Below, piece after piece: positions 7,851 to 26,608 of a stretch of DNA of 64,000 nucleotides (its first letter is position 1; each line of letters opens with the position of its first letter). The DNA comes from Burkholderiales bacterium. Its GTDB lineage: Bacteria; Pseudomonadota; Gammaproteobacteria; Burkholderiales; Sulfuriferulaceae. The notes beneath the pieces are model-generated. The model did not search any database, was not told where the DNA came from, and saw only the letters and a program-made list of their open reading frames with translations. The stretch covers positions 839 through 64,838 of the forward strand of contig JBBQPT010000009.1 of NCBI GenBank assembly GCA_038217005.1. The letters run 5' to 3'. A program made the position numbers and the translations under genes.

Positions 7851-8468
7851 ATGAATTTTGAAACTATCGTATTTTATGGCTTTGCGGCAATTTTATTGTT
7901 CGCAGGATTTCGTGTCATTACTACACGTAACCCGGTGCATGCAGCACTGTTTCTGGTGTTGGCTTTTTTCACTGCGGCAGGTTTATGGCTGATGCTGGAA
8001 GCAGAGTTCCTAGCAATTACCTTGGTGCTGGTCTATGTCGGTGCAGTTATGGTGTTGTTCCTGTTTGTGGTGATGATGCTGGATATTAATCTGGATAGAT
8101 TGCGAGAAGGTTTCTGGGATTATCTGCCATTGGCTGGTTTTGTAGCGACAATGCTGGCTATTGAGATGGCGGTGGTATTGGGTAGTCGTAGCTTTGGCCT
8201 GGATATCGTGCCTGCCCCTGCGTTACATGCAGCCGATTACAGCAACACCAAAGAATTGGGCCGTTTGCTTTATACCGACTATGTATATCCGTTTGAATTG
8301 GCTGCGGTGGTGTTGTTGGTGGCAATTGTTGCTGCGATTGCGTTGACTATGCGTAAGCGTAAAACCAGCAAGTATCAGGACCCTGCTCAGCAGGTCAGAA
8401 TCAAGCGTGCAGATCGCGTGCGTCTCGTAAGCATGGCTGCTGAACAGCCATCTTCTACTAAGTCTTAA
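7851..8468 (+). CDS. nuoJ: NADH-quinone oxidoreductase subunit J
   Basis: NPVHAALFL and [18 protein letters not shown]; hydrophobic; operon order. Confidence 0.96.
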
Positions 8469-13818: not shown

Positions 13819-14108
13819 ATACCAGCGTCTTAGCCCTATTGGTAGTGGCCTTAGTGACTGCTAATGTTCCGTTCTTTTCTAATCGGGTGATGCTGTTAAT
13901 CCCGGTAAAGTCGGAACACAAGGCGTTGGGTTGGCATGCGTTAGAAATGCTCGTATGGTATTTCATTGTGGGATTGCTAGGTCGCCTGCTGGAACAAAAG
14001 ACGGGTATTGCACATCACCAAAATTGGGAGTTTTATGCGGTGACGGCAAGCATGTTTATCGTGCTTGCATTTCCTGGTTTCGTTTATCGCTACTTATGGC
14101 GGCGTTAA
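13815..14108 (+). CDS. DUF2818 family membrane protein
   Basis: ATGA overlap with the nuoN stop. ANVPF...WEFYAVT...FPGFVYRYL pattern; this family usually follows nuoN in betaproteobacteria. Confidence 0.85.
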
Positions 14109-14531
14109 GGTTTTTTTAGTCAAACATTCAAAGTAAATGGCAGGGTCAAAAGCTGTATGATGACGTTGCGCTTGCCATATCATTTCTGCTAAACAGTCCA
14201 TCATTTCATGCTGTGCGCGCATTTCGTCCTGAAATAGTGCGCATAATTTTTGGTAGTAGTCGCGTACACCAGCGGGTTGGTCAATAGATAATTGCTCGTT
14301 TATCGCCAAATGCATAGAAAGATGTAAAAACGGATTGGTTTCGCCCAATTCAGCGGGGAAATCCTGCTCACCATAACGCTCAGGTTGATTCAGCATTGCG
14401 TGGTATTCAGGATGTGCCAGCATAATATCAACAGCGACAAACTCCGCGCCTGCTAACGGTTGTTTATCTAGATATTTGCGCCAGGAGTTGAAATAAAACT
14501 GGCGTGCGTCTTGTCTGCTAGGATTAAACAT
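14094..14531 (-). CDS. DUF1841 family protein
   Basis: MFNPSRQDARQFYF start; HPEYH and NPFLHLSMHLAINEQLSIDQP motifs. Start set at ATG 14531, overlapping the FIST gene stop. Confidence 0.85.
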   Translation of the reverse strand: MFNPSRQDARQFYFNSWRKYLDKQPLAGAEFVAVDIMLAHPEYHAMLNQPERYGEQDFPAELGETNPFLHLSMHLAINEQLSIDQPAGVRDYYQKLCALFQDEMRAQHEMMDCLAEMIWQAQRHHTAFDPAIYFECLTKKTLTPP

Positions 14532-15612
14532 TGTAGTCAAATAGTCCAAAAACGGTTGCATATTCTAACAACTGATTGCTGTCATTAAGCCAGCAAATTT
14601 CACCACTATCATAAAAACCGATAAACGGTAAATCAGGGTGGCACGATTTTACCGCGAGCAAATCTTTGTCTACACCACCATAGAAGCCAGGGCCACGTCC
14701 TGACGAGCTGGCGATAATTGCAAATTTAGGGTTGTGTCCTAAAATCTGCGTTGTTCTGTCGACGGCGACACGCATGCTTCGCTCCGCTGCGAGTGGTTGG
14801 CGGATAGCCCAGAACATTTGGCTGCCTATAGTCAGGCGCGATGCCAGAGTGACGGATCTGTCATCAGTATTTGTGGCAATGACAGGGATAAGTCGATAAC
14901 GACCATCCATCAGTGCCGAATCAGGCTCTCCATAAACCTCTGCCGCCATGATGAGGTGGAGTGGTATGCGTGGTAATTCACGAATCTCGAGCGGTAGTTC
15001 TCTGGCTAATAGATTGAGTGCAGATTGGCGGCCTAAGCTCAGGATGTCATAGCCATTCACCTCAGTAACCGTCACTGGGGCTGTCAAAGCGCGGATGCCA
15101 TGCGATATGCCTATCGCTCCAGTGGTGTTGGGTAAATATAGCTCACAGTGCCCTGCAGGGTTGATTTTGCCATTATTCCAGACTTTGTATAGACCATGTC
15201 CTGTGGCATCACCGGCTACGCCGCCGAAGCGCAGTCCTGGCGATTTAATCCAGTTGTGGTTAATGGCATTGGGTGCGGTCAGTGCGAGCAGTAAGTCGTC
15301 GGCCTCAGGTGAATGTGCGGTATTTAAGCCCAGATTGCCGCTAAACACCATGGCTGCGGCAGCAGGCGCGTCGAGTACCCAATCCTGCTCTGTGAATATG
15401 CCTGCTGCACTACAGCCACTGATTTGCATGCATTGACTCTGGCGTGACGCAGCGAGCAGGGCAGGTTGTGGGTCGCGTGCAAATGCATCGCTTAAAAACA
15501 GTAATACGCTATTGGCGTGAGTTACTGATAGTTTATCCATCGCGATTGCAACCGCTTGTGCGGCAATAGCTGGGTCAGCGGTTTTGCCGGTTGCGATGCC
15601 GGTGGCTATCAT
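14524..15612 (-). CDS. Stand-alone FIST domain protein (FIST_N + FIST_C; NosP-like putative sensor)
   Basis: ISGCSAAGIFT, FGGVAGD, SSSGRG and GFYDSGEI patterns typical of FIST; no output domain. Confidence 0.75.
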   Translation of the reverse strand: MIATGIATGKTADPAIAAQAVAIAMDKLSVTHANSVLLFLSDAFARDPQPALLAASRQSQCMQISGCSAAGIFTEQDWVLDAPAAAAMVFSGNLGLNTAHSPEADDLLLALTAPNAINHNWIKSPGLRFGGVAGDATGHGLYKVWNNGKINPAGHCELYLPNTTGAIGISHGIRALTAPVTVTEVNGYDILSLGRQSALNLLARELPLEIRELPRIPLHLIMAAEVYGEPDSALMDGRYRLIPVIATNTDDRSVTLASRLTIGSQMFWAIRQPLAAERSMRVAVDRTTQILGHNPKFAIIASSSGRGPGFYGGVDKDLLAVKSCHPDLPFIGFYDSGEICWLNDSNQLLEYATVFGLFDYNV

Positions 15613-16241
15613 AGGGATTTATCTTTGTATTTGCAGAGGTCGGCAATGATGCAATGGGTACAGTCTGGTTTGCGTGCCTTGCAAGTGTAGCGACCATGCA
15701 ATATTAACCAGTGATGTGCATTGACCATATAATCTTTGGGTATGGCTTTCATTAACTTTTGTTCAACAATTAATACGGTTTTGCCAGGTGCTAGTCCTAT
15801 GCGATTAGATACCCGGAATATATGCGTGTCGACTGCCATAACAGCTTCGCCGAATGCAGTGTTGAGGATGACATTCGCGGTTTTGCGACCAACACCAGGC
15901 AGCGCCTCTAAGTGCGTGCGGCTGTTGGGCACGATACTGTTATGTTGTTCAACCAGAATTTGGCAAGTAGCGATTAAATGTTTGGCTTTACTTTTATATA
16001 AGCCAATTCTTTGGATGTATTCAGCTAGGCGTTGTTCACCTAGTGCAAATATAGTTTCAGGGGTGTTGGCAACGTTAAATAAAATACGGGTAGCAATGTT
16101 GACGCTTTTATCAGTTGCTTGAGCTGAAAGTAGAACCGCTACCAGTAATTCAAATGTGCTGTGATATTCGAGTTCAGTGGTAGGGTTAGGATTAGCTGCC
16201 GCGAAACGGGTAAAAATCTCGCGGCGTTGTGGGCTGGCCAG
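15609..16241 (-). CDS. nth: Endonuclease III (probable CTG start)
   Basis: TTELEY, LLSAQATD, HhH motif LPGVGRKTANV, VDTHIFRV and CKARKPDCTHCIIADLC Fe-S motif. From CTG 16241 the protein is 210 aa; no in-frame ATG lies near the expected start. Confidence 0.93.
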   Translation of the reverse strand: MASPQRREIFTRFAAANPNPTTELEYHSTFELLVAVLLSAQATDKSVNIATRILFNVANTPETIFALGEQRLAEYIQRIGLYKSKAKHLIATCQILVEQHNSIVPNSRTHLEALPGVGRKTANVILNTAFGEAVMAVDTHIFRVSNRIGLAPGKTVLIVEQKLMKAIPKDYMVNAHHWLILHGRYTCKARKPDCTHCIIADLCKYKDKSL

Positions 16242-16242
16242 T

Positions 16243-16659
16243 TTAGAAATGACGGAACCAACCAATATCTGGCGATGCTGGACGTGGGTTTTGTTTAGCT
16301 TCTTCTTCAAGCTTATGCAGGAAGTTGTGATGATCTTCATCCAATTTATGCATGGCTTCGTCTGACATTTTGCCGAATAGCGTGCCAGTAATGAAACCGC
16401 CTAAATCAATTAGTGTGGTTGCCCATAAGCCCTGGCGTAAATGGAAATCGGTGTGGGAGTGTTGGCCGTATGGGTAGTTCATGAATTCATAGCCTTTAAC
16501 AGCGCTTAAATCCGGGTCATTCATAACAAAGTTTTTCGCCCAGTCATACCACCATTTATAATACTTTTCTTGCATGGTGGTGTTTAGGTTGTGACGATCG
16601 TAAAAACCGAATACGCTTACACGGTTAGTGTTGCCGCTGAAAGGGAAATGACCTGACAT
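16243..16659 (-). CDS. Hypothetical protein, 138 aa, His/Trp-rich, unknown function
   Basis: Clean ORF with a GAAGGA Shine-Dalgarno upstream of ATG 16659. Codon choice (TTC, AAC, CAC, CGT, GGT/GGC) resembles the highly expressed ilvC and ppiB genes here. Confidence 0.8.
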   Translation of the reverse strand: MSGHFPFSGNTNRVSVFGFYDRHNLNTTMQEKYYKWWYDWAKNFVMNDPDLSAVKGYEFMNYPYGQHSHTDFHLRQGLWATTLIDLGGFITGTLFGKMSDEAMHKLDEDHHNFLHKLEEEAKQNPRPASPDIGWFRHF

Positions 16660-16738
16660 ACCTAACATCCTTCATGATAGTAAAAATCACATTTTAACCT
16701 GTTTTTTTGTATTTGGTATATGGAAGTGAGTGAGTTGA

Positions 16739-17293
16739 ATGTTGGCTGGAAATAATGACGCAATATCGACAGTGACTTTGGGTGGCGGGTGTTTCTGGTG
16801 CCTGGAAGCAGTGTTTGAAAAAATGCACGGTGTAATGCTTGTCGAATCAGGTTACATGGGAGGTGCGCGACCCAATCCTGCGTATGAGGATGTTTGCACC
16901 GGTACAACAGGACATGCTGAGGTGGTGCAGATTAGCTACGATACACAGCAGACCAGTCTGGTAGATATATTGCATGTGTTTTTTGCGATTCATGATGCCA
17001 CTACGTTAAATCGCCAAGGCAATGATGTCGGCACGCAATATCGCTCGGTTATTTTTTACCATGATGAGACGCAAAAACAGACGGCTGCTGAAGTATTGGC
17101 ACAACTGCAGGCGCAACTGGATCGTCCTGTGGTAACTGAATTAACGCCAGTTACTGAATTTTATCGTGCCGAAGAAATGCATCAGCATTATTTTGCGTTA
17201 CATCCACAGCAAGGTTATTGCCAGTATGTCGTAGCGCCTAAGGTAGCTAAGTTTAAACAACACTTCCCGCAATGGGTGCAAGTGCGTGGCTAA
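16739..17293 (+). CDS. msrA: Peptide-methionine (S)-S-oxide reductase
   Basis: GGGCFWC active-site motif; TGHAEVV, GNDVGTQYRS and AEEMHQHY. Confidence 0.96.
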   Translation: MLAGNNDAISTVTLGGGCFWCLEAVFEKMHGVMLVESGYMGGARPNPAYEDVCTGTTGHAEVVQISYDTQQTSLVDILHVFFAIHDATTLNRQGNDVGTQYRSVIFYHDETQKQTAAEVLAQLQAQLDRPVVTELTPVTEFYRAEEMHQHYFALHPQQGYCQYVVAPKVAKFKQHFPQWVQVRG

Positions 17294-20589: not shown

Positions 20590-21654
20590 ATGAAAATTGC
20601 TGTTTTACCGGGTGATGGAATAGGTCCTGAAGTAACTGCACAGGCGGTTAAGGTGTTGCAAGCTTTGAATAGTGAAGGCTTGAAAATCGAAATGGAACAT
20701 GCGGCTATTGGCGGTGCCGGTTATGATGCGGCGGGTGATCCTTTGCCTGAAGCAACGCTGGCGCTATCACGTGCAGCTGATGCCGTGTTGTTAGGCGCGG
20801 TGGGTGGTTATCAATATGATAGTTTGCCGCGCCCCATGCGCCCCGAGCAAGGTTTGCTGCGTATCCGTAAAGAGCTGAATTTATTTGCGAATTTACGTCC
20901 TGTTAACGTTTATCCAGAGCTCGCTGATGCGTCTACTTTGAAAGCTGAAGTGGTATCAGGACTGGATATCATGATTGTGCGTGAATTAACCGGTGACCTG
21001 TATTTCGGTCAGCCGCGCGGCATCCATATCAATGAACATGGCGAGCGCGAGGGCTATAACACCATGCGTTACGCAGAATCCGAAGTGCGTCGCGTCGCAC
21101 ACATCGGTTTCCAGATTGCGATGAAGCGGAACAAAAAATTATGCTCGGTGGAAAAAGCCAATGTGCTGGAAACCAGCGAATTGTGGCGTGAAGTGGTCAT
21201 TGAAACGGCTAAAGAATATCCTGAAGTGGCTTTGTCGCATATGTATGTTGATAACGCCGCGATGCAATTAGTGCGCAATCCCAAGCAATTTGATGTCATC
21301 GTTACCGGTAATATCTTTGGTGATATTTTGTCTGATGAGGCATCCATGTTGACGGGTTCGATCGGTATGCTGGGTTCTGCGTCTTTAGACCAGAATCGTA
21401 AAGGTATGTACGAGCCTATTCATGGTTCTGCGCCTGATATCGCAGGGCAGGATATCGCCAATCCGTTGGCAACCATTTTATCGGCAGCGATGATGATGCG
21501 TTACACCTTCGGGCGTGATGATGTCGCAGATCGTATCGAAAATGCAGTGAAAAAAGTGATTAGCAGCGGTCTGCGTACAGTGGATATTTATACCGCAGGC
21601 ACGACCAAAGTCGGTTGTGCGGCGATGGGCGATGCTGTTGTTGCAGCGCTTTAA
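20590..21654 (+). CDS. leuB: 3-isopropylmalate dehydrogenase
   Basis: [22 protein letters not shown] and [13 protein letters not shown]. Confidence 0.98.
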
Positions 21655-21668
21655 TTAAGGATAGAAGT

Positions 21669-22784
21669 ATGATGCGAGTGGGTTTGGTCGGTTGGCGCGG
21701 CATGGTAGGTTCGGTGCTGATGCAGCGTATGCGCGAAGAGCGCGATTTTGATGTGATAGATCCTGTGTTTTTCACCACCTCACAAGTGGGGGGCAAAGGT
21801 CCTGAGATTGGGCATGATATCCCAGCATTGAAAGATGCGCGCAATATCGATGAGCTTAAAGCCATGGATGCGATTATTTCCACTCAAGGTGGCGATTATA
21901 CGACTGAGGTATTTGGGCAATTACGTGCTGCGGGCTGGAAGGGCTACTGGATAGATGCGGCTTCTACCTTGCGTATGGAAACCGACAGCGTAATTATCCT
22001 CGATCCTGTTAATCAGCATGTGATCAAAGATGCGCTGGCTAAAGGCGGTAAGGATTTCATCGGCGGTAATTGCACTGTGTCATTGATGTTGATGGCGTTG
22101 GGCGGCTTGTTCCGTGAAAATATGGTTGACTGGATCAGTGCCATGACTTATCAGGCAGCTTCAGGCGCGGGCGCGCAGAACATGCGTGAGCTGTTAAATC
22201 AAATGGGCGAAACGCATCGCACCGTATCTGCTTTATTGGATGATCCCGCCTCGGCAATACTGGATATTGATAGGGAAGTCGCTGGTGTGTTGCGTGATGA
22301 TGCCTTCCCTAAATCCAATTTCGGTGTGCCATTGGCTGGTAGCCTGATCCCTTGGATAGACAAGGATTTAGGCAATGGTCAGAGTAAAGAAGAGTGGAAA
22401 GCTCGCGCTGAGACCAACAAGATTTTAGGGCTGAATGGCGATCAAATTAGCATTGATGGCTTGTGTGTGCGTATCGGTGCAATGCGTTGCCACAGTCAGG
22501 CATTAACGGTCAAACTCAAGCAAGACGTGCCTATGGATGAGATCGAATCTATTATTGCTGGCCATAATGCGTGGGTAAAAGTCGTGCCTAACCAAAAGGA
22601 AATTAGTATGACTGATTTAACGCCTGCTGCAGTAACGGGCACACTGACAGTGCCGGTTGGACGTATGCGTAAAATGTACATGGGCGGTGAATACTTGTCT
22701 GCGTTCACAGTCGGCGATCAGTTACTGTGGGGTGCGGCGGAACCATTGCGTCGTATGTTACGTATTTTGGTAGAGGCGCAATGA
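21669..22784 (+). CDS. asd: Aspartate-semialdehyde dehydrogenase (E. coli type)
   Basis: [31 protein letters not shown] and [14 protein letters not shown]. Confidence 0.97.
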
Positions 22785-23797
22785 GCGCCGCAGTAGTGAA
22801 TATTGCCGTTTTAGGTGTAACTACTTTGGTTGGTGAGGCTGTGCTTGCGCATTTGGCTGCAGCAGAGATTAACTTGGGCCAGCTTTATCTGTTGTCTTCG
22901 GGTGAGGCTATCGGTAGCGAGGTTCGGTTTAAATATCAGGATAAAATCGTTACAGATGTCGATACGTTTGATTTTTCACAAGTGCAGATGGCCATATTCG
23001 CAGCGGATGCTGATGTGGCTGCCCGAATTGCGCCCATTGCTGTGGCGGCGGGGTGTGTAGTAATTGATACCAGCCCACAATTTCGTCAAGATGATGATGT
23101 ACCGCTTGTAGTGGTGGGTGTGAATGAAGCAACGCTAAAAGGATTTGGTAAAGATCTTATTATTGCCAGTCCATGTGCAGTTAGCATGCACTTGGCCCTG
23201 AGTTTGAAATCTATAGCCAGTGAGTTTGGTTTAATAAGTGTCACTGTTTCGACTTATCAGGCTGTTTCTGGATCAGGTCAAGCTGGGGTGGATGAGTTGG
23301 CTGAGCAAACCAAAGCAATTTTTAGTCTTAATGAAACTGAGAATAATGTATATGCTAAGCGTATTTCCTTTAACATTTTGCCGCAAGTTGGTGATTTGAT
23401 GGATAATGGTTATAGTATTGAAGAAATGAAGTTGGTTAATGAAACACGAAAAATTTTAGCGCTTCCTGAGTTGGTTGTTAATCCTACGGCTGTTCGTGTG
23501 CCTGTTTTTTACGGGCATGGTCAATCGGTGCAGATCACAACAGTAAAGCCAGTCAGCGTGGGTTTGTCGACAGCTTTGTGGCAGCAGCAGGCTGGTATTC
23601 TTGTTGCTGATAGTGATGACGGTGTTGGGCCTACACCAGTGGACGTGGTGGGTTGTGATGATGTATTTGTTGGGCGAATTCGCGGTGCAATGGGGACTCA
23701 ATCTGGCTTGAATTACTGGTTAGTTGCGGACAATATCCACTCGGGTGTGGCATTAAATAGTGTGCGAATTGTTAATGTGCTAAAAGATTTGATGTGA
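22781..23797 (+). CDS. usg: Asd-family paralog (USG-1 / PA3116-like), divergent
   Basis: [19 protein letters not shown] and WLVADN motifs; ATGA overlap with asd; degenerate nucleotide-binding fingerprint. Confidence 0.75.
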
Positions 23798-23857
23798 TGT
23801 GATTTAATTTAAAACAATGGATATGTTGAAGCATACCGAAATAAAGGGGTCGAGATA

Positions 23858-26608
23858 ATGCATAAAAAGAAGATGGTGAGTTGTTTGTCAGCTGCTATGT
23901 TGCTACTTGCGCAAGCACCCGCATATAGCGCAGGTTTAGGTAAGCTTTCAATCAACTCAGCGCTGGGTCAGCCTTTGAATGCCGAGATTGAAGTGTTGGC
24001 AACCGACCCAACTGAATTAGCGACCCTGCAAGCGCGGATGGCGAGTCCTGAAGCGTACCGCAACGCTAACGTCGATATGACGGGTGTGTTATCCAGTTTG
24101 AAATTCGTTTTAGAGAAACGGCCTGGTGGTCGTTCGGTGCTGAAAGTAAGTTCGAATAAACCGATTAACGATCCATTTGTGGATATGTTAATCGAGTTAA
24201 ATTGGGGTGGTGGTCAGATGGTGCGCGAGTACACTTTGCTGCTAGACCCACCAGGCATGGCATCAGCTAACACCAATAACAACATCACGGTGACGCCGGC
24301 TACCACGTCAGCACCAACCCCAGCTACCAGTTCGACTGTGCCGACGGCGGAAAAGCCATCAGTTAATAATGTATCGAATGAGCGTGCGCCTGCTAAAGTA
24401 GCGCCAGAAAAAGCGCCTGTGCCGAAAACTGTCGTCAAGCCTAAAGCCGTGCCGCCTGTCGCCAGCAAGCCTGTCGAAGCCGCGCCTGCAAAAACAGAAT
24501 CTGTAGCGCCATCCAACGATTTGGCAGTAATGCCAGCAACTATTGCCGCTAAACGTGGTTCTACGTTAAGTTCATTGGCAAAAGAGGTCAAGCCTGAAGG
24601 CGTGAAGTTGGAACAGATGCTGGTCGGTTTGTATCGTCAAAATCCATCAGCATTTAACGGCAACATGAATCAGATGAAAGCCGGAAAAATTCTGAAAGTG
24701 CCAAGCAAAGAGGAAGTTGCGGCTATCAGCCAGGCTGATGCAGTGCGCGAAATCAAGCTGCAAGCCAATGATTGGCATAATTATCGTCAAAAACTGGCGG
24801 GTGAGGTTGCTGCTGCGCCCGTTGCGGAAACCAAGTCCACACCGAATGTTGGAAAAATTACGCCTAAGGTTGAGGATAAGGCTGCCCCAGTTAAATCTGG
24901 TCAGGATGTGCTTAAGCTCTCCAAAGGTGAGGCACCTGCAACGAATACTCAGGCGGCAAGCGCGGCGAAACCAGCTAAGCCTACTGCGGCTGAGTTAAAG
25001 CAGGCGGCACAGGATGAGGCTGTTGCGAGACAAAAGGCATTGAAGGAAGCGAATGATCGTGCTGCGGCGCTAGAAAAAAATATCAAAGATATGCAGCGCC
25101 TGGTAGAGCTGAAAAACCAGAGCATGGCGAATATGCAAAAAGAAGCCGCCAAGCCAGCGGCTATCACAGCGCCACCTGCGGTCAAACCAGAAGCAAAACC
25201 AGAGGTTGCACCTGCGGTAGTTAAAAAACCTGCAGTAAAACCAGTTGTTCCAGCCCCTGTTCCAGTTGCTGAGCCGGCGTGGTATGAAGATATCAATCCA
25301 CTCTATGCCGCAGGCGGTGCGGTGGGTGCGCTTTTATTGGCATTGCTGGGGTTTATGGCAAAGAGCAGAAGTCGTCGTGCAAACTTGTCCAAGTTTGAAA
25401 ATAGCATCATGACCAATGTTGCGGCGAAGCCAAATACGGTTTACGGTACACAAGGCGGTGCAGTAGTTAATACCAACAATACTTCATTTTTGACTGATTT
25501 TAGCCAGTCAGGTCTGGGCAGCCTTGATACGCATGACGTAGATCCTATCGCTGAAGCGGAAGTGTATATGGCTTATGGCCGAGATGCACAAGCAGAAGAA
25601 ATACTCAAAGAAGCGATGGTTAAAGATCCCGCACGTCATGAAATCAAGTTGAAATTGCTGGAGATCTATGCCGGGCGTAAAAATCTGCCAGCTTTTGAAT
25701 CCATTGCAACTGAATTGTATTCAGCGTTGGCGGGTGAGAACACGCCAGTTTGGGAAAAGGCGGCAGAATTGGGTCGTAGTCTGGATCCAAATAATCCATT
25801 ATATGGCGGCTCGGCAGCGTCTGCTGCAGAAAAAATGGTTGAACCCGTGGTTGCCGCAGCAGCAGTAGCGGCTACGCTTGCTGATGAACCGGCAGAAATT
25901 GATACCACTCCAGTTGCTGAGGGGGTAATGGATTTATCAGGCACATTGGATTTTGATGGCGAGTCATTTGATGTGAATGACATGGTAAGTGATAAAGTCG
26001 TTGCTGAAGAAAGCGTACCTGCAGAGGGTATGTTGGATATGAGCGAGTTTGAATTGCCGGCAACTTTTGAGCCGGCTGCGTTGGAAACATCCAATGTGAT
26101 GGATTTGGATGTGCCTGCTGTTGATGCGCATCATCAAGTTGTTGCTGCGGTTGAGCAACCGACAGAGGTTGAGGCGAATGCTGCTGCCATTGAAGCATTA
26201 GTTCATGACGAAAATATGCTCAACTTTGATTTCAGTGTGGATGAGCCTGTTCATCAAGAGACGGAAGCAGAAGTGGCTCCTGTCGCCACGACAGAAGATA
26301 TTGCGTTGGATTTTTCTGGCATAAGTTTCGATTTTGATGAGCCTGAAGTGGCTGAGGTGTCTGATAAGTCTGCGGTAGCTGAAACGGTTGATGCGACCGA
26401 AGCAGTTGCTGACCATCCTGCTGAAATGCCTGCGGCACCGGAGCTTAGTGAAGCCGAGCAAGAAGTAAAAACCAAGTTAGACTTGGCGCAAGTTTACTTG
26501 GAAATGGGTGACAACGAGAATGCGCGTGAAATTTTGCAAGAAGTGATGCAAGAAGGTAATGCACAACAGCAAGAGCAGGCGCATGCATTTCTACAGCAAG
26601 TGGGTTGA
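23858..26608 (+). CDS. fimV: FimV/HubP family polar landmark protein
   Basis: Signal peptide then GLGKLSINSALGQPLNAEI; LysM-like region; coiled coil; TM helix; DVDPIAEAEVYMAYGRDAQAEEIL; C-terminal TKLDLAQVYLEMGD. Confidence 0.95.
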   Translation: MHKKKMVSCLSAAMLLLAQAPAYSAGLGKLSINSALGQPLNAEIEVLATDPTELATLQARMASPEAYRNANVDMTGVLSSLKFVLEKRPGGRSVLKVSSNKPINDPFVDMLIELNWGGGQMVREYTLLLDPPGMASANTNNNITVTPATTSAPTPATSSTVPTAEKPSVNNVSNERAPAKVAPEKAPVPKTVVKPKAVPPVASKPVEAAPAKTESVAPSNDLAVMPATIAAKRGSTLSSLAKEVKPEGVKLEQMLVGLYRQNPSAFNGNMNQMKAGKILKVPSKEEVAAISQADAVREIKLQANDWHNYRQKLAGEVAAAPVAETKSTPNVGKITPKVEDKAAPVKSGQDVLKLSKGEAPATNTQAASAAKPAKPTAAELKQAAQDEAVARQKALKEANDRAAALEKNIKDMQRLVELKNQSMANMQKEAAKPAAITAPPAVKPEAKPEVAPAVVKKPAVKPVVPAPVPVAEPAWYEDINPLYAAGGAVGALLLALLGFMAKSRSRRANLSKFENSIMTNVAAKPNTVYGTQGGAVVNTNNTSFLTDFSQSGLGSLDTHDVDPIAEAEVYMAYGRDAQAEEILKEAMVKDPARHEIKLKLLEIYAGRKNLPAFESIATELYSALAGENTPVWEKAAELGRSLDPNNPLYGGSAASAAEKMVEPVVAAAAVAATLADEPAEIDTTPVAEGVMDLSGTLDFDGESFDVNDMVSDKVVAEESVPAEGMLDMSEFELPATFEPAALETSNVMDLDVPAVDAHHQVVAAVEQPTEVEANAAAIEALVHDENMLNFDFSVDEPVHQETEAEVAPVATTEDIALDFSGISFDFDEPEVAEVSDKSAVAETVDATEAVADHPAEMPAAPELSEAEQEVKTKLDLAQVYLEMGDNENAREILQEVMQEGNAQQQEQAHAFLQQVG

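Follow-up and report, generated by a model that had tools for sequence, protein, structure and literature searches.

A previously undescribed family of His-rich proteins encoded next to nth that tracks sHdr-type sulfur oxidation in Gammaproteobacteria

The 64,000-nucleotide stretch of Sulfuriferulaceae DNA analyzed here (the window) carries on its minus strand a four-gene cluster with the order X-nth-FIST-DUF1841, in which the first gene, referred to below as X, encodes a small His- and Trp-rich, Cys-free protein, and msrA is transcribed divergently from it. The open reading frame that contains X spans positions 16243 to 16668 of the minus strand, and its coding sequence occupies positions 16243 to 16659: the homologs used to set the start all begin with M-[AS]-G-H-F-P-F, and a Shine-Dalgarno sequence, AAGGA (16668 to 16672, minus strand), can be read 8 nt upstream, so that translation starts at the ATG at 16659 and yields a protein of 138 amino acids. 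An earlier note on this DNA had placed X within the same limits and given it the same length, and the homolog N termini and the Shine-Dalgarno sequence bear this out. The Shine-Dalgarno sequence, in the form AAGGA or GAGGA, is kept ahead of X in Sulfuriferula loci, and the aligned upstream regions of the Sulfuriferula group also share the sequence CAGG(T/C)TAAAAT or its TAGAAT version ∼32 nt 5′ of the ATG. Judging from this alignment, TAAAAT at positions 16691 to 16696 (minus strand), which is preceded by an A-rich tract, could be the −10 hexamer of a promoter of X's own; a promoter consensus scan did not flag this hexamer, and the sites returned by promoter and terminator scans were no more numerous than in shuffled sequence.

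The X protein contains, on recount, the 10 His and 5 Trp residues that the earlier note had listed; it has 0 Cys residues, 17% of its residues are aromatic, and its pI is 6.2. No transmembrane helix is predicted (the Kyte-Doolittle maximum over 19 residues is 1.2), again in line with the earlier note, and X is probably an abundant cytoplasmic protein.

Directly downstream of X lies nth (positions 15609 to 16241, minus strand), an open reading frame whose orthologs match the HhH-GPD and HHH families of Pfam and whose product, endonuclease III (EndoIII), carries the canonical C-x6-C-x2-C-x5-C cluster motif. As there is no ATG, GTG, or TTG codon between the X stop codon and the conserved N-terminal region of Nth, this gene must start either at the in-frame TTG at 16268, with a 26-nt overlap with X, or at the noncanonical in-frame CTG at 16241, 1 nt past the X stop codon; in other Sulfuriferula loci, nth begins 17 to 23 nt past X. 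The third gene of the cluster (14524 to 15612, minus strand) encodes a FIST-domain protein, with the FIST and FIST_C families of Pfam detected on its Sulfurirhabdus ortholog, and the fourth (14094 to 14561, minus strand) encodes a DUF1841 protein, with PF08897 detected on its orthologs. The divergent open reading frame at positions 16739 to 17293 of the plus strand, which from its sequence we take to be msrA, shares a 79-bp intergenic region with X. The description of X as the leading gene of an nth operon therefore fits the window.

The neighborhoods of X were compared by placing Nth, FIST, DUF1841, and RnfA to RnfG with tblastn in 98 loci, some of which are redundant copies of one contig. 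In 92 of the 93 loci with enough downstream sequence, nth lies directly 3′ of X on the same strand, with a gap ranging from −22 to +160 nt; the lone exception (locus L056) has rnfE, then X, then a gene for a rhodanese-like protein, and no nth. The FIST gene keeps its place behind nth in loci of the beta type, the Acidiferrobacter type, and Acidithiobacillus, and both the FIST and DUF1841 genes come after nth in most loci of the first two types. The DUF1841 gene also follows nth in an X-negative genome (locus L121) and is therefore tied to nth rather than specific to X.

On its other side, X is divergent from msrA only in Sulfuriferula-type loci, and rnf genes are found upstream of X elsewhere. 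A complete rnfABCDGE set is directly upstream of X in 43 loci and a lone rnfB-like ferredoxin gene in 11; 5 loci have an rnfE-like gene or a contig end in this position, and 37, from Sulfuriferula, Acidithiobacillus, and some Thioalkalivibrio members, have unrelated genes. With rnfABCDGE or an rnfB-like gene upstream, X is an extra gene between rnf and nth that coexists with RnfB. X is thus usually an insertion in the classical rnfABCDGE-nth operon; the ancestral order is rnfABCDGE-X-nth, and X remains with nth when the operon breaks up.

In many proteobacteria, the slot just before nth is occupied by a gene for an RsxB/RnfB-type polyferredoxin, and the earlier note had suggested that X could be its replacement. 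This idea did not survive the comparison. Not only do rnf or rnfB-like genes precede X in so many loci, but the genome of the window itself keeps rnfABCDGE intact elsewhere (contig C2, positions 21422 to 26424). RnfB is an Fe-S protein that is rich in Cys and anchored in the membrane, whereas X has no transmembrane helix, and the [4Fe-4S] Cys motifs of RsxB/RnfB (PF04060 and Fer4) are absent from X, which cannot be an Fe-S substitute because it contains no Cys at all. An obligate role of X as an Rnf subunit was rejected as well: matches to RnfD/NqrB (PF03116) were absent from 16 of 26 X-positive genomes, including those of Acidithiobacillus, Acidiferrobacter, and Acidihalobacter, while control genomes behaved as expected. 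Several Rnf-less genomes have a gene for a lone rnfB-like polyferredoxin of ∼240 amino acids before X-nth (loci L004, L006, L047, L052 to L054, L058, L060, and L091), so the pairing of RnfB with nth persists without the membrane complex.

A word-indexed search of 5.8 billion proteins returned 113 clusters of X homologs, with 42 to 96% identity and lengths of 137 to 160 amino acids, none with a Pfam domain; a profile that included distant members raised the number of clusters to 168. An exhaustive HMMER search of 1.84 billion representatives added a few further distant relatives with 27 to 37% identity; large repeat proteins from the same search (P0123, P0127, and P0128) were judged to be low-complexity or repeat artifacts and set aside. 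The family comprises ∼170 to 200 homologs, every one of them labeled “hypothetical,” and is present in ∼127 of 185,579 species genomes. Carriers include Sulfuriferula, Sulfurirhabdus, Acidiferrobacter, Thermithiobacillus, Igneacidithiobacillus, Acidihalobacter, many members of Thioalkalivibrio, and, within Acidithiobacillus, A. ferrooxidans, A. ferrivorans, A. thiooxidans, and A. ferridurans; the closest public locus, with 96% identity, is labeled Sulfuriferula sp.

X is under strong purifying selection, with a median pairwise dN/dS of 0.09 among orthologs of the Sulfuriferula group. Among 202 sequences, the positions conserved in at least 99% include F7, R13, Y33, W37, L51, G65, H67, F72, H73, L74, G87, H110, R136, and H137; two further His residues, H4 and H104, are conserved in 95% and 83% of the sequences, respectively. 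Approximately 93% of the 202 begin with M-[AS]-G-H, and 134 of them contain no Cys. With this many homologs and this degree of constraint, X is not the isolated or neutrally evolving reading frame whose existence would have counted against the earlier note.

The assignment of X to a new family held in every comparison made. The window protein matches no family in Pfam or NCBIfam; a Pfam scan of 25 aligned members with E values of up to 10 gave only noise, with no recurring family; a sequence-profile search of the PDB also gave only noise; and a literature search found nothing on this protein. An AlphaFold2 model built from 25 sequences has five helices (pLDDT of 83 and pTM of 0.80), and a second model built from 149 sequences again has five (pLDDT of 86 and pTM of 0.83). 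Foldseek searches of the PDB with both models found no neighbor (the best E value was 2.4, and all TM-scores were below 0.3, the best being 0.21 to 0.28), and a search of the viral structure library BFVD found nothing like X. The earlier note had named this combination of structure prediction and fold search as a check, and its outcome, a confident five-helix model with no PDB neighbor, fits a protein of a family not described before, whose predicted fold is all-helical and without a counterpart among solved structures. The lowest-confidence parts of both models are the central loop and the C terminus, where the conserved His motifs sit, and the N-terminal segment is also of low confidence in the first model; such a pattern would be expected for parts that become ordered upon ligand binding.

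Codon usage was assessed with a self-consistent codon adaptation index (CAI) derived from the genome (2,191 genes). The top-ranking genes encode the large and small subunits of RuBisCO, ribosomal proteins, EF-Ts, ATP synthase, GlnA, GroEL, DnaK, superoxide dismutase (SOD), IlvC, and PpiB; with such genes leading the list, the dominant codon bias tracks expression. X has a CAI of 0.700 and ranks 48th of 2,191 (98th percentile, with a bootstrap lower bound at the 94th), next to values of 0.734 for ilvC and 0.702 for ppiB, so the resemblance to these two genes that the earlier note had pointed out is real; X is level with ppiB and groEL in the Sulfuriferula genome. Within its own cluster, the values are 0.545 for nth (77th percentile), 0.450 for the FIST gene (20th percentile), and 0.601 for the DUF1841 gene (91st percentile). 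Codon usage predicts a far higher abundance for the X protein than for the product of the adjoining nth, and a CAI so far above those of nth and the FIST gene suggests an abundant protein that acts stoichiometrically. The metagenome-assembled genome (MAG) to which the window belongs (G000) is 94% complete; its contig C1 ends within tuf, motif searches found no signatures of rpsL, rplL, or rpoB, so that this assembly seems to lack the main clusters of ribosomal-protein genes and rpoBC.

The taxa named above as carriers of X are known for sulfur oxidation through the heterodisulfide-reductase-like (sHdr) pathway (PMC6067878, PMC6382920, PMC6335251). The genome of the window is no exception: outside the window, positions 1 to 11700 of contig C31 hold a complete type-I sHdr cluster with the gene order dsrE3-shdrC1B1A-hyp-C2B2-lbpA-dsrE-lbpA, plus genes for a radical-SAM lipoate-assembly protein and an LplA-like ligase, and with a rhodanese and a molybdopterin oxidoreductase set encoded beside it. 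Several genes of this cluster, including those for LbpA and DsrE, are among those with the highest CAI in the genome.

Phylogenetic profiling against sulfur oxidizers, which the earlier note had proposed, proved to be the most informative test. The presence of sHdr was scored with the sHdrB1 protein of the window genome as the query. This protein was detected at 79 to 95% identity in 38 of 41 genomes with His-rich X and was absent from both genomes with a His-less variant of X. Among 400 genomes sampled evenly from the class Gammaproteobacteria (in the GTDB sense, including the beta lineages and Acidithiobacillia), 25 genomes were sHdrB1 positive, 24 were X positive, and 23 were both. All 23 genomes with His-rich X had sHdr, compared to 2 of the remaining 377, and the sole X-positive, sHdr-negative genome (G278) encodes a His-less variant identical to P0124. 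Fisher's exact test, which ignores phylogeny, gave a P value of ∼1e-34 by genome (n = 400) and, likewise with phylogeny ignored, ∼1e-25 by GTDB family, all 17 X-positive families being sHdr positive. SoxB served as a control: 145 of the 400 genomes had SoxB above the curated cutoff, and the ∼120 genomes that were SoxB positive and sHdr negative all lacked X, so that X cannot be regarded as a general sulfur-oxidizer protein.

This association does not extend to gene order. No shdr genes were seen within 6 to 9 kb of X in the loci with annotated neighbors, and in the genome of the window X and the shdr cluster lie on different contigs (C9 and C31). A search for an operator common to the X and shdr upstream regions found one shared 10-mer, which is within chance expectation. 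Nor were sHdr-positive organisms from outside the class Gammaproteobacteria found among the X homolog hits. The association could in part reflect shared ancestry.

The exceptions are instructive. Two genomes of the sample, G376 and G230, are sHdr positive and X negative. The first lacks nth as well, which suggests an assembly gap as the reason for the missing X. The second is a complete genome in which rnfE is directly next to nth and X is truly absent; its shdr cluster looks intact, since an in-frame TAA in sHdrB1, considered as a possible defect, falls outside the aligned coding region. In the Thioalkalivibrio family (55 genomes), X and sHdr are both present in 36 genomes and both absent from 6, whereas 2 genomes, both fragmentary MAGs, have X alone and 11 have sHdr alone (Fisher P value of 0.008); that is, 36 of the 38 X-positive genomes have sHdr and 6 of the 8 sHdr-negative genomes lack X. 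Two Thioalkalivibrio strains of the rDsr type were reported to lack hdr (PMC6382920), in agreement with the X-negative, sHdr-negative genomes. In four genomes of this kind (G486, G498, G527, and G530), rnfE is 95 to 141 bp from nth with no remnant of X, and the one X-negative, sHdr-positive genome that was checked in the same way (G484) has the same arrangement, with a gap of 96 bp. A clade of ∼11 species genomes in this family combines intact shdr with rnfE adjoining nth (locus L109, corresponding to positions 1179500 to 1189500 of contig C1 of G230, and locus L122, from G484). The relation therefore runs one way: His-rich X is hardly ever retained where sHdr is missing, but sHdr is able to function without X.

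Divergent relatives of X with 27 to 37% identity are found in Thiotrichales MAGs (loci L094/L099 and L096, with X at positions 7981 to 8379 of L094). They sit in the order rnfABCDGE-X-nth and still have the Trp/Tyr-rich helix; H4, H73, H104, H137, R13, and R136 are gone from them, and their genomes have no sHdrB1. The conserved His/Arg set thus behaves as one unit: it is kept along with sHdr and is lost together in the sHdr-negative lineage that retains the gene.

X is probably a so far unrecognized helper of the sHdr-based lifestyle. As for its biochemistry, the reading that we favor, tentatively and well short of conviction, is that of a His-ligated accessory protein that binds a metal or an oxyanion and is needed only in sHdr-type sulfur oxidizers. 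Its candidate functional site would bring together the N-terminal (M)-A/S-G-H hook, the loop G-Q-H-x5-H-L, H104 and H110 of helix 5, and the C-terminal G-x-F/Y-R-H motif, and would thus hold two H-x5-H pairs, the C-terminal R-H, and two invariant Arg residues. Ala or Ser at position 2 favors removal of the initiator Met by methionine aminopeptidase; excision of this residue would leave A/S-G-H, an X-X-His N terminus of the ATCUN type, and with Met removal predicted, His is indeed at position 3 of the mature chain in the ∼93% of family members that share this start. ATCUN sites normally bind Cu(II) or Ni(II), and the scarcity of these ions in the reducing cytoplasm counts against such a role for X. 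The His set could bind a metal ion or, alternatively, the His/Arg/Trp pocket could bind a sulfur oxyanion. The metal or heme binding put forward in the earlier note is plausible in view of the strongly conserved His residues and the X-X-His N terminus predicted after Met removal.

Under the favored reading, X would act in stoichiometric amounts to buffer or protect against a by-product that arises in sHdr-driven cytoplasmic sulfur oxidation, and those protected may be Fe-S proteins, such as EndoIII and RnfB, or DNA. Such a protective role would explain why X is cotranscribed with the gene for the Fe-S DNA glycosylase EndoIII and often with those for RnfB/Rnf as well. Sulfite by itself does not account for X, because oxidizers of the rDsr type also make cytoplasmic sulfite and yet lack X. 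X may also be in physical contact with Nth, RnfB, or sHdr. In its most explicit form, this proposal makes X a metalloprotein with a new fold and a lineage-specific component of the sHdr system in Gammaproteobacteria that captures a metal or a reactive sulfur oxyanion or radical and shields Fe-S proteins and DNA; so specific a version is doubtful, although shielding of this kind would explain the insertion of X into the rnf/rsx-nth operon and its retention there.

The constancy of nth as a neighbor invites a different explanation, namely, that X is a dedicated partner of endonuclease III: a chaperone, an inhibitor, a DNA-lesion cofactor, or a cluster-protecting subunit. The His set would then serve in protein-protein or protein-DNA contacts, and the link to sHdr would come about only through the added load that sHdr metabolism places on Nth. 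X does stay with nth where rnf is absent or located elsewhere, in Sulfuriferula the two genes are separated by a short gap or overlap, and the aromatic-rich helix YYKWWYDW could stack on bases. However, a codon adaptation so much higher than that of nth argues against a 1:1 partnership, Nth is universal and X is rare, locus L056 has X after rnfE with no nth, and the pI of X suits neither a mimic of DNA nor a basic DNA-binding protein. On balance, we consider this explanation unlikely.

Another explanation does without a specific partner: X could serve a few chemolithoautotrophic lineages as a His-rich metal buffer or stress protein of general use, tied to sHdr not by function but by phylogenetic inertia or a shared habitat, such as metal-rich or sulfidic sites. 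Mine drainage, tailings, and soda lakes are indeed the source of many X-positive genomes, sHdr operates without X in the 11 genomes of the Thioalkalivibrio family and in all nongammaproteobacterial sHdr organisms, and X is not adjacent to shdr genes. What makes this explanation quite unlikely is that the 17 X-positive families are interspersed among the ∼120 SoxB-positive, sHdr-negative genomes from similar niches, none of which has X, that exactly the sHdr-negative lineage in which the gene persists has lost the His set, and that most sHdr-negative genomes of the Thioalkalivibrio family have no X, with no trace of the gene in the four inspected.

The placement of X behind rnfE or a lone rnfB-like gene recalls RnfH (PF03658), a small soluble accessory subunit encoded right after rnfE in the rnfABCDGEH operons of Azotobacter and Rhodobacter; X, too, is a small soluble protein encoded directly after rnfE in an rnf operon. 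X could accordingly be viewed as an electron-transfer adaptor or accessory of Rnf/RnfB that would use a His-ligated redox cofactor (heme b or a metal) to pass electrons from the RnfB-type ferredoxin to a partner. The most divergent relatives of X still keep the rnfE-X order, and conserved Tyr/Trp residues combined with His pairs would be typical of electron- or hole-hopping and cofactor sites. The similarity goes no further, as RnfH has no resemblance to X in sequence (in the Pfam scan of 25 members) or in fold (by Foldseek), and X occurs in Rnf-less genomes and stays with nth, not rnf, when the operon is split. The genes upstream of X are unrelated to Rnf in 37 loci, rnfABCDGE is on another contig in the genome of the window, and X has no Cys, no known heme motif, and no match to a cytochrome or flavoprotein fold, all of which renders the Rnf connection very unlikely. 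Finally, there is next to no chance that X is a fortuitous open reading frame or a decaying relic: nothing beyond the missing annotation speaks for it, and this reading is already refuted by the conservation of ∼200 homologs of constant length, with the low dN/dS, invariant motifs, confident fold prediction, and conserved position and strand noted above.

To return to X as a ligand-binding accessory of sHdr-type oxidizers, three groups of known proteins offer partial parallels. Like the nickel superoxide dismutase (NiSOD) and other proteins with N-terminal metal hooks of the ATCUN type, X is a small helical protein whose conserved N terminus could wrap around a metal; in contrast to NiSOD, it lacks the HCxxPC hook and any Cys, its fold matches neither NiSOD nor another PDB entry, and its five further conserved His residues have no counterpart there. 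The resemblance to Dps, ferritin-like, and hemerythrin-like proteins is only conceptual: ∼140 to 160 amino acids, a helical structure, potential His and carboxylate ligands, conserved Trp, and a link to DNA protection. X has no Pfam or Foldseek match to these proteins, its His residues are mostly in loops and termini rather than in the ExxH or HxxxE motifs of helices, and the Pfam, PDB profile, and Foldseek searches gave no indication of a four-helix-bundle di-iron fold.

The closest parallel in distribution is with the sHdr accessory proteins LbpA, TusA, DsrE3, and Rhd (PMC6067878, PMC11094781), which are also small and cytoplasmic, show high codon adaptation, and occur along with sHdr. X shares this co-occurrence, with its gene located away from the shdr-lbpA cluster. 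The genes for the known accessory proteins lie in or beside the shdr cluster, and their chemistry relies on Cys or lipoate, whereas X is encoded at nth and has no Cys. In addition, X is found in a single bacterial class, and some lineages run sHdr without it.

The sHdr-LbpA system ranks among the major routes of dissimilatory sulfur oxidation, and its workings are not yet fully understood; it operates in the bioleaching acidithiobacilli of the genus Acidithiobacillus, in Thioalkalivibrio from soda lakes, and in many bacteria from mine drainage and groundwater. When the presence of a probably abundant protein predicts this pathway almost perfectly across an entire class, and yet the gene for that protein sits at a DNA-repair locus, current models would seem to leave out some cost or by-product of sulfur oxidation by this route. 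X also gives a handle on an old puzzle, the persistent cotranscription of rnf/rsx, or of a lone rnfB-like ferredoxin gene, with nth. Beyond these questions, it defines a new protein family with a confidently predicted fold, clear candidate ligand residues, and tractable hosts.
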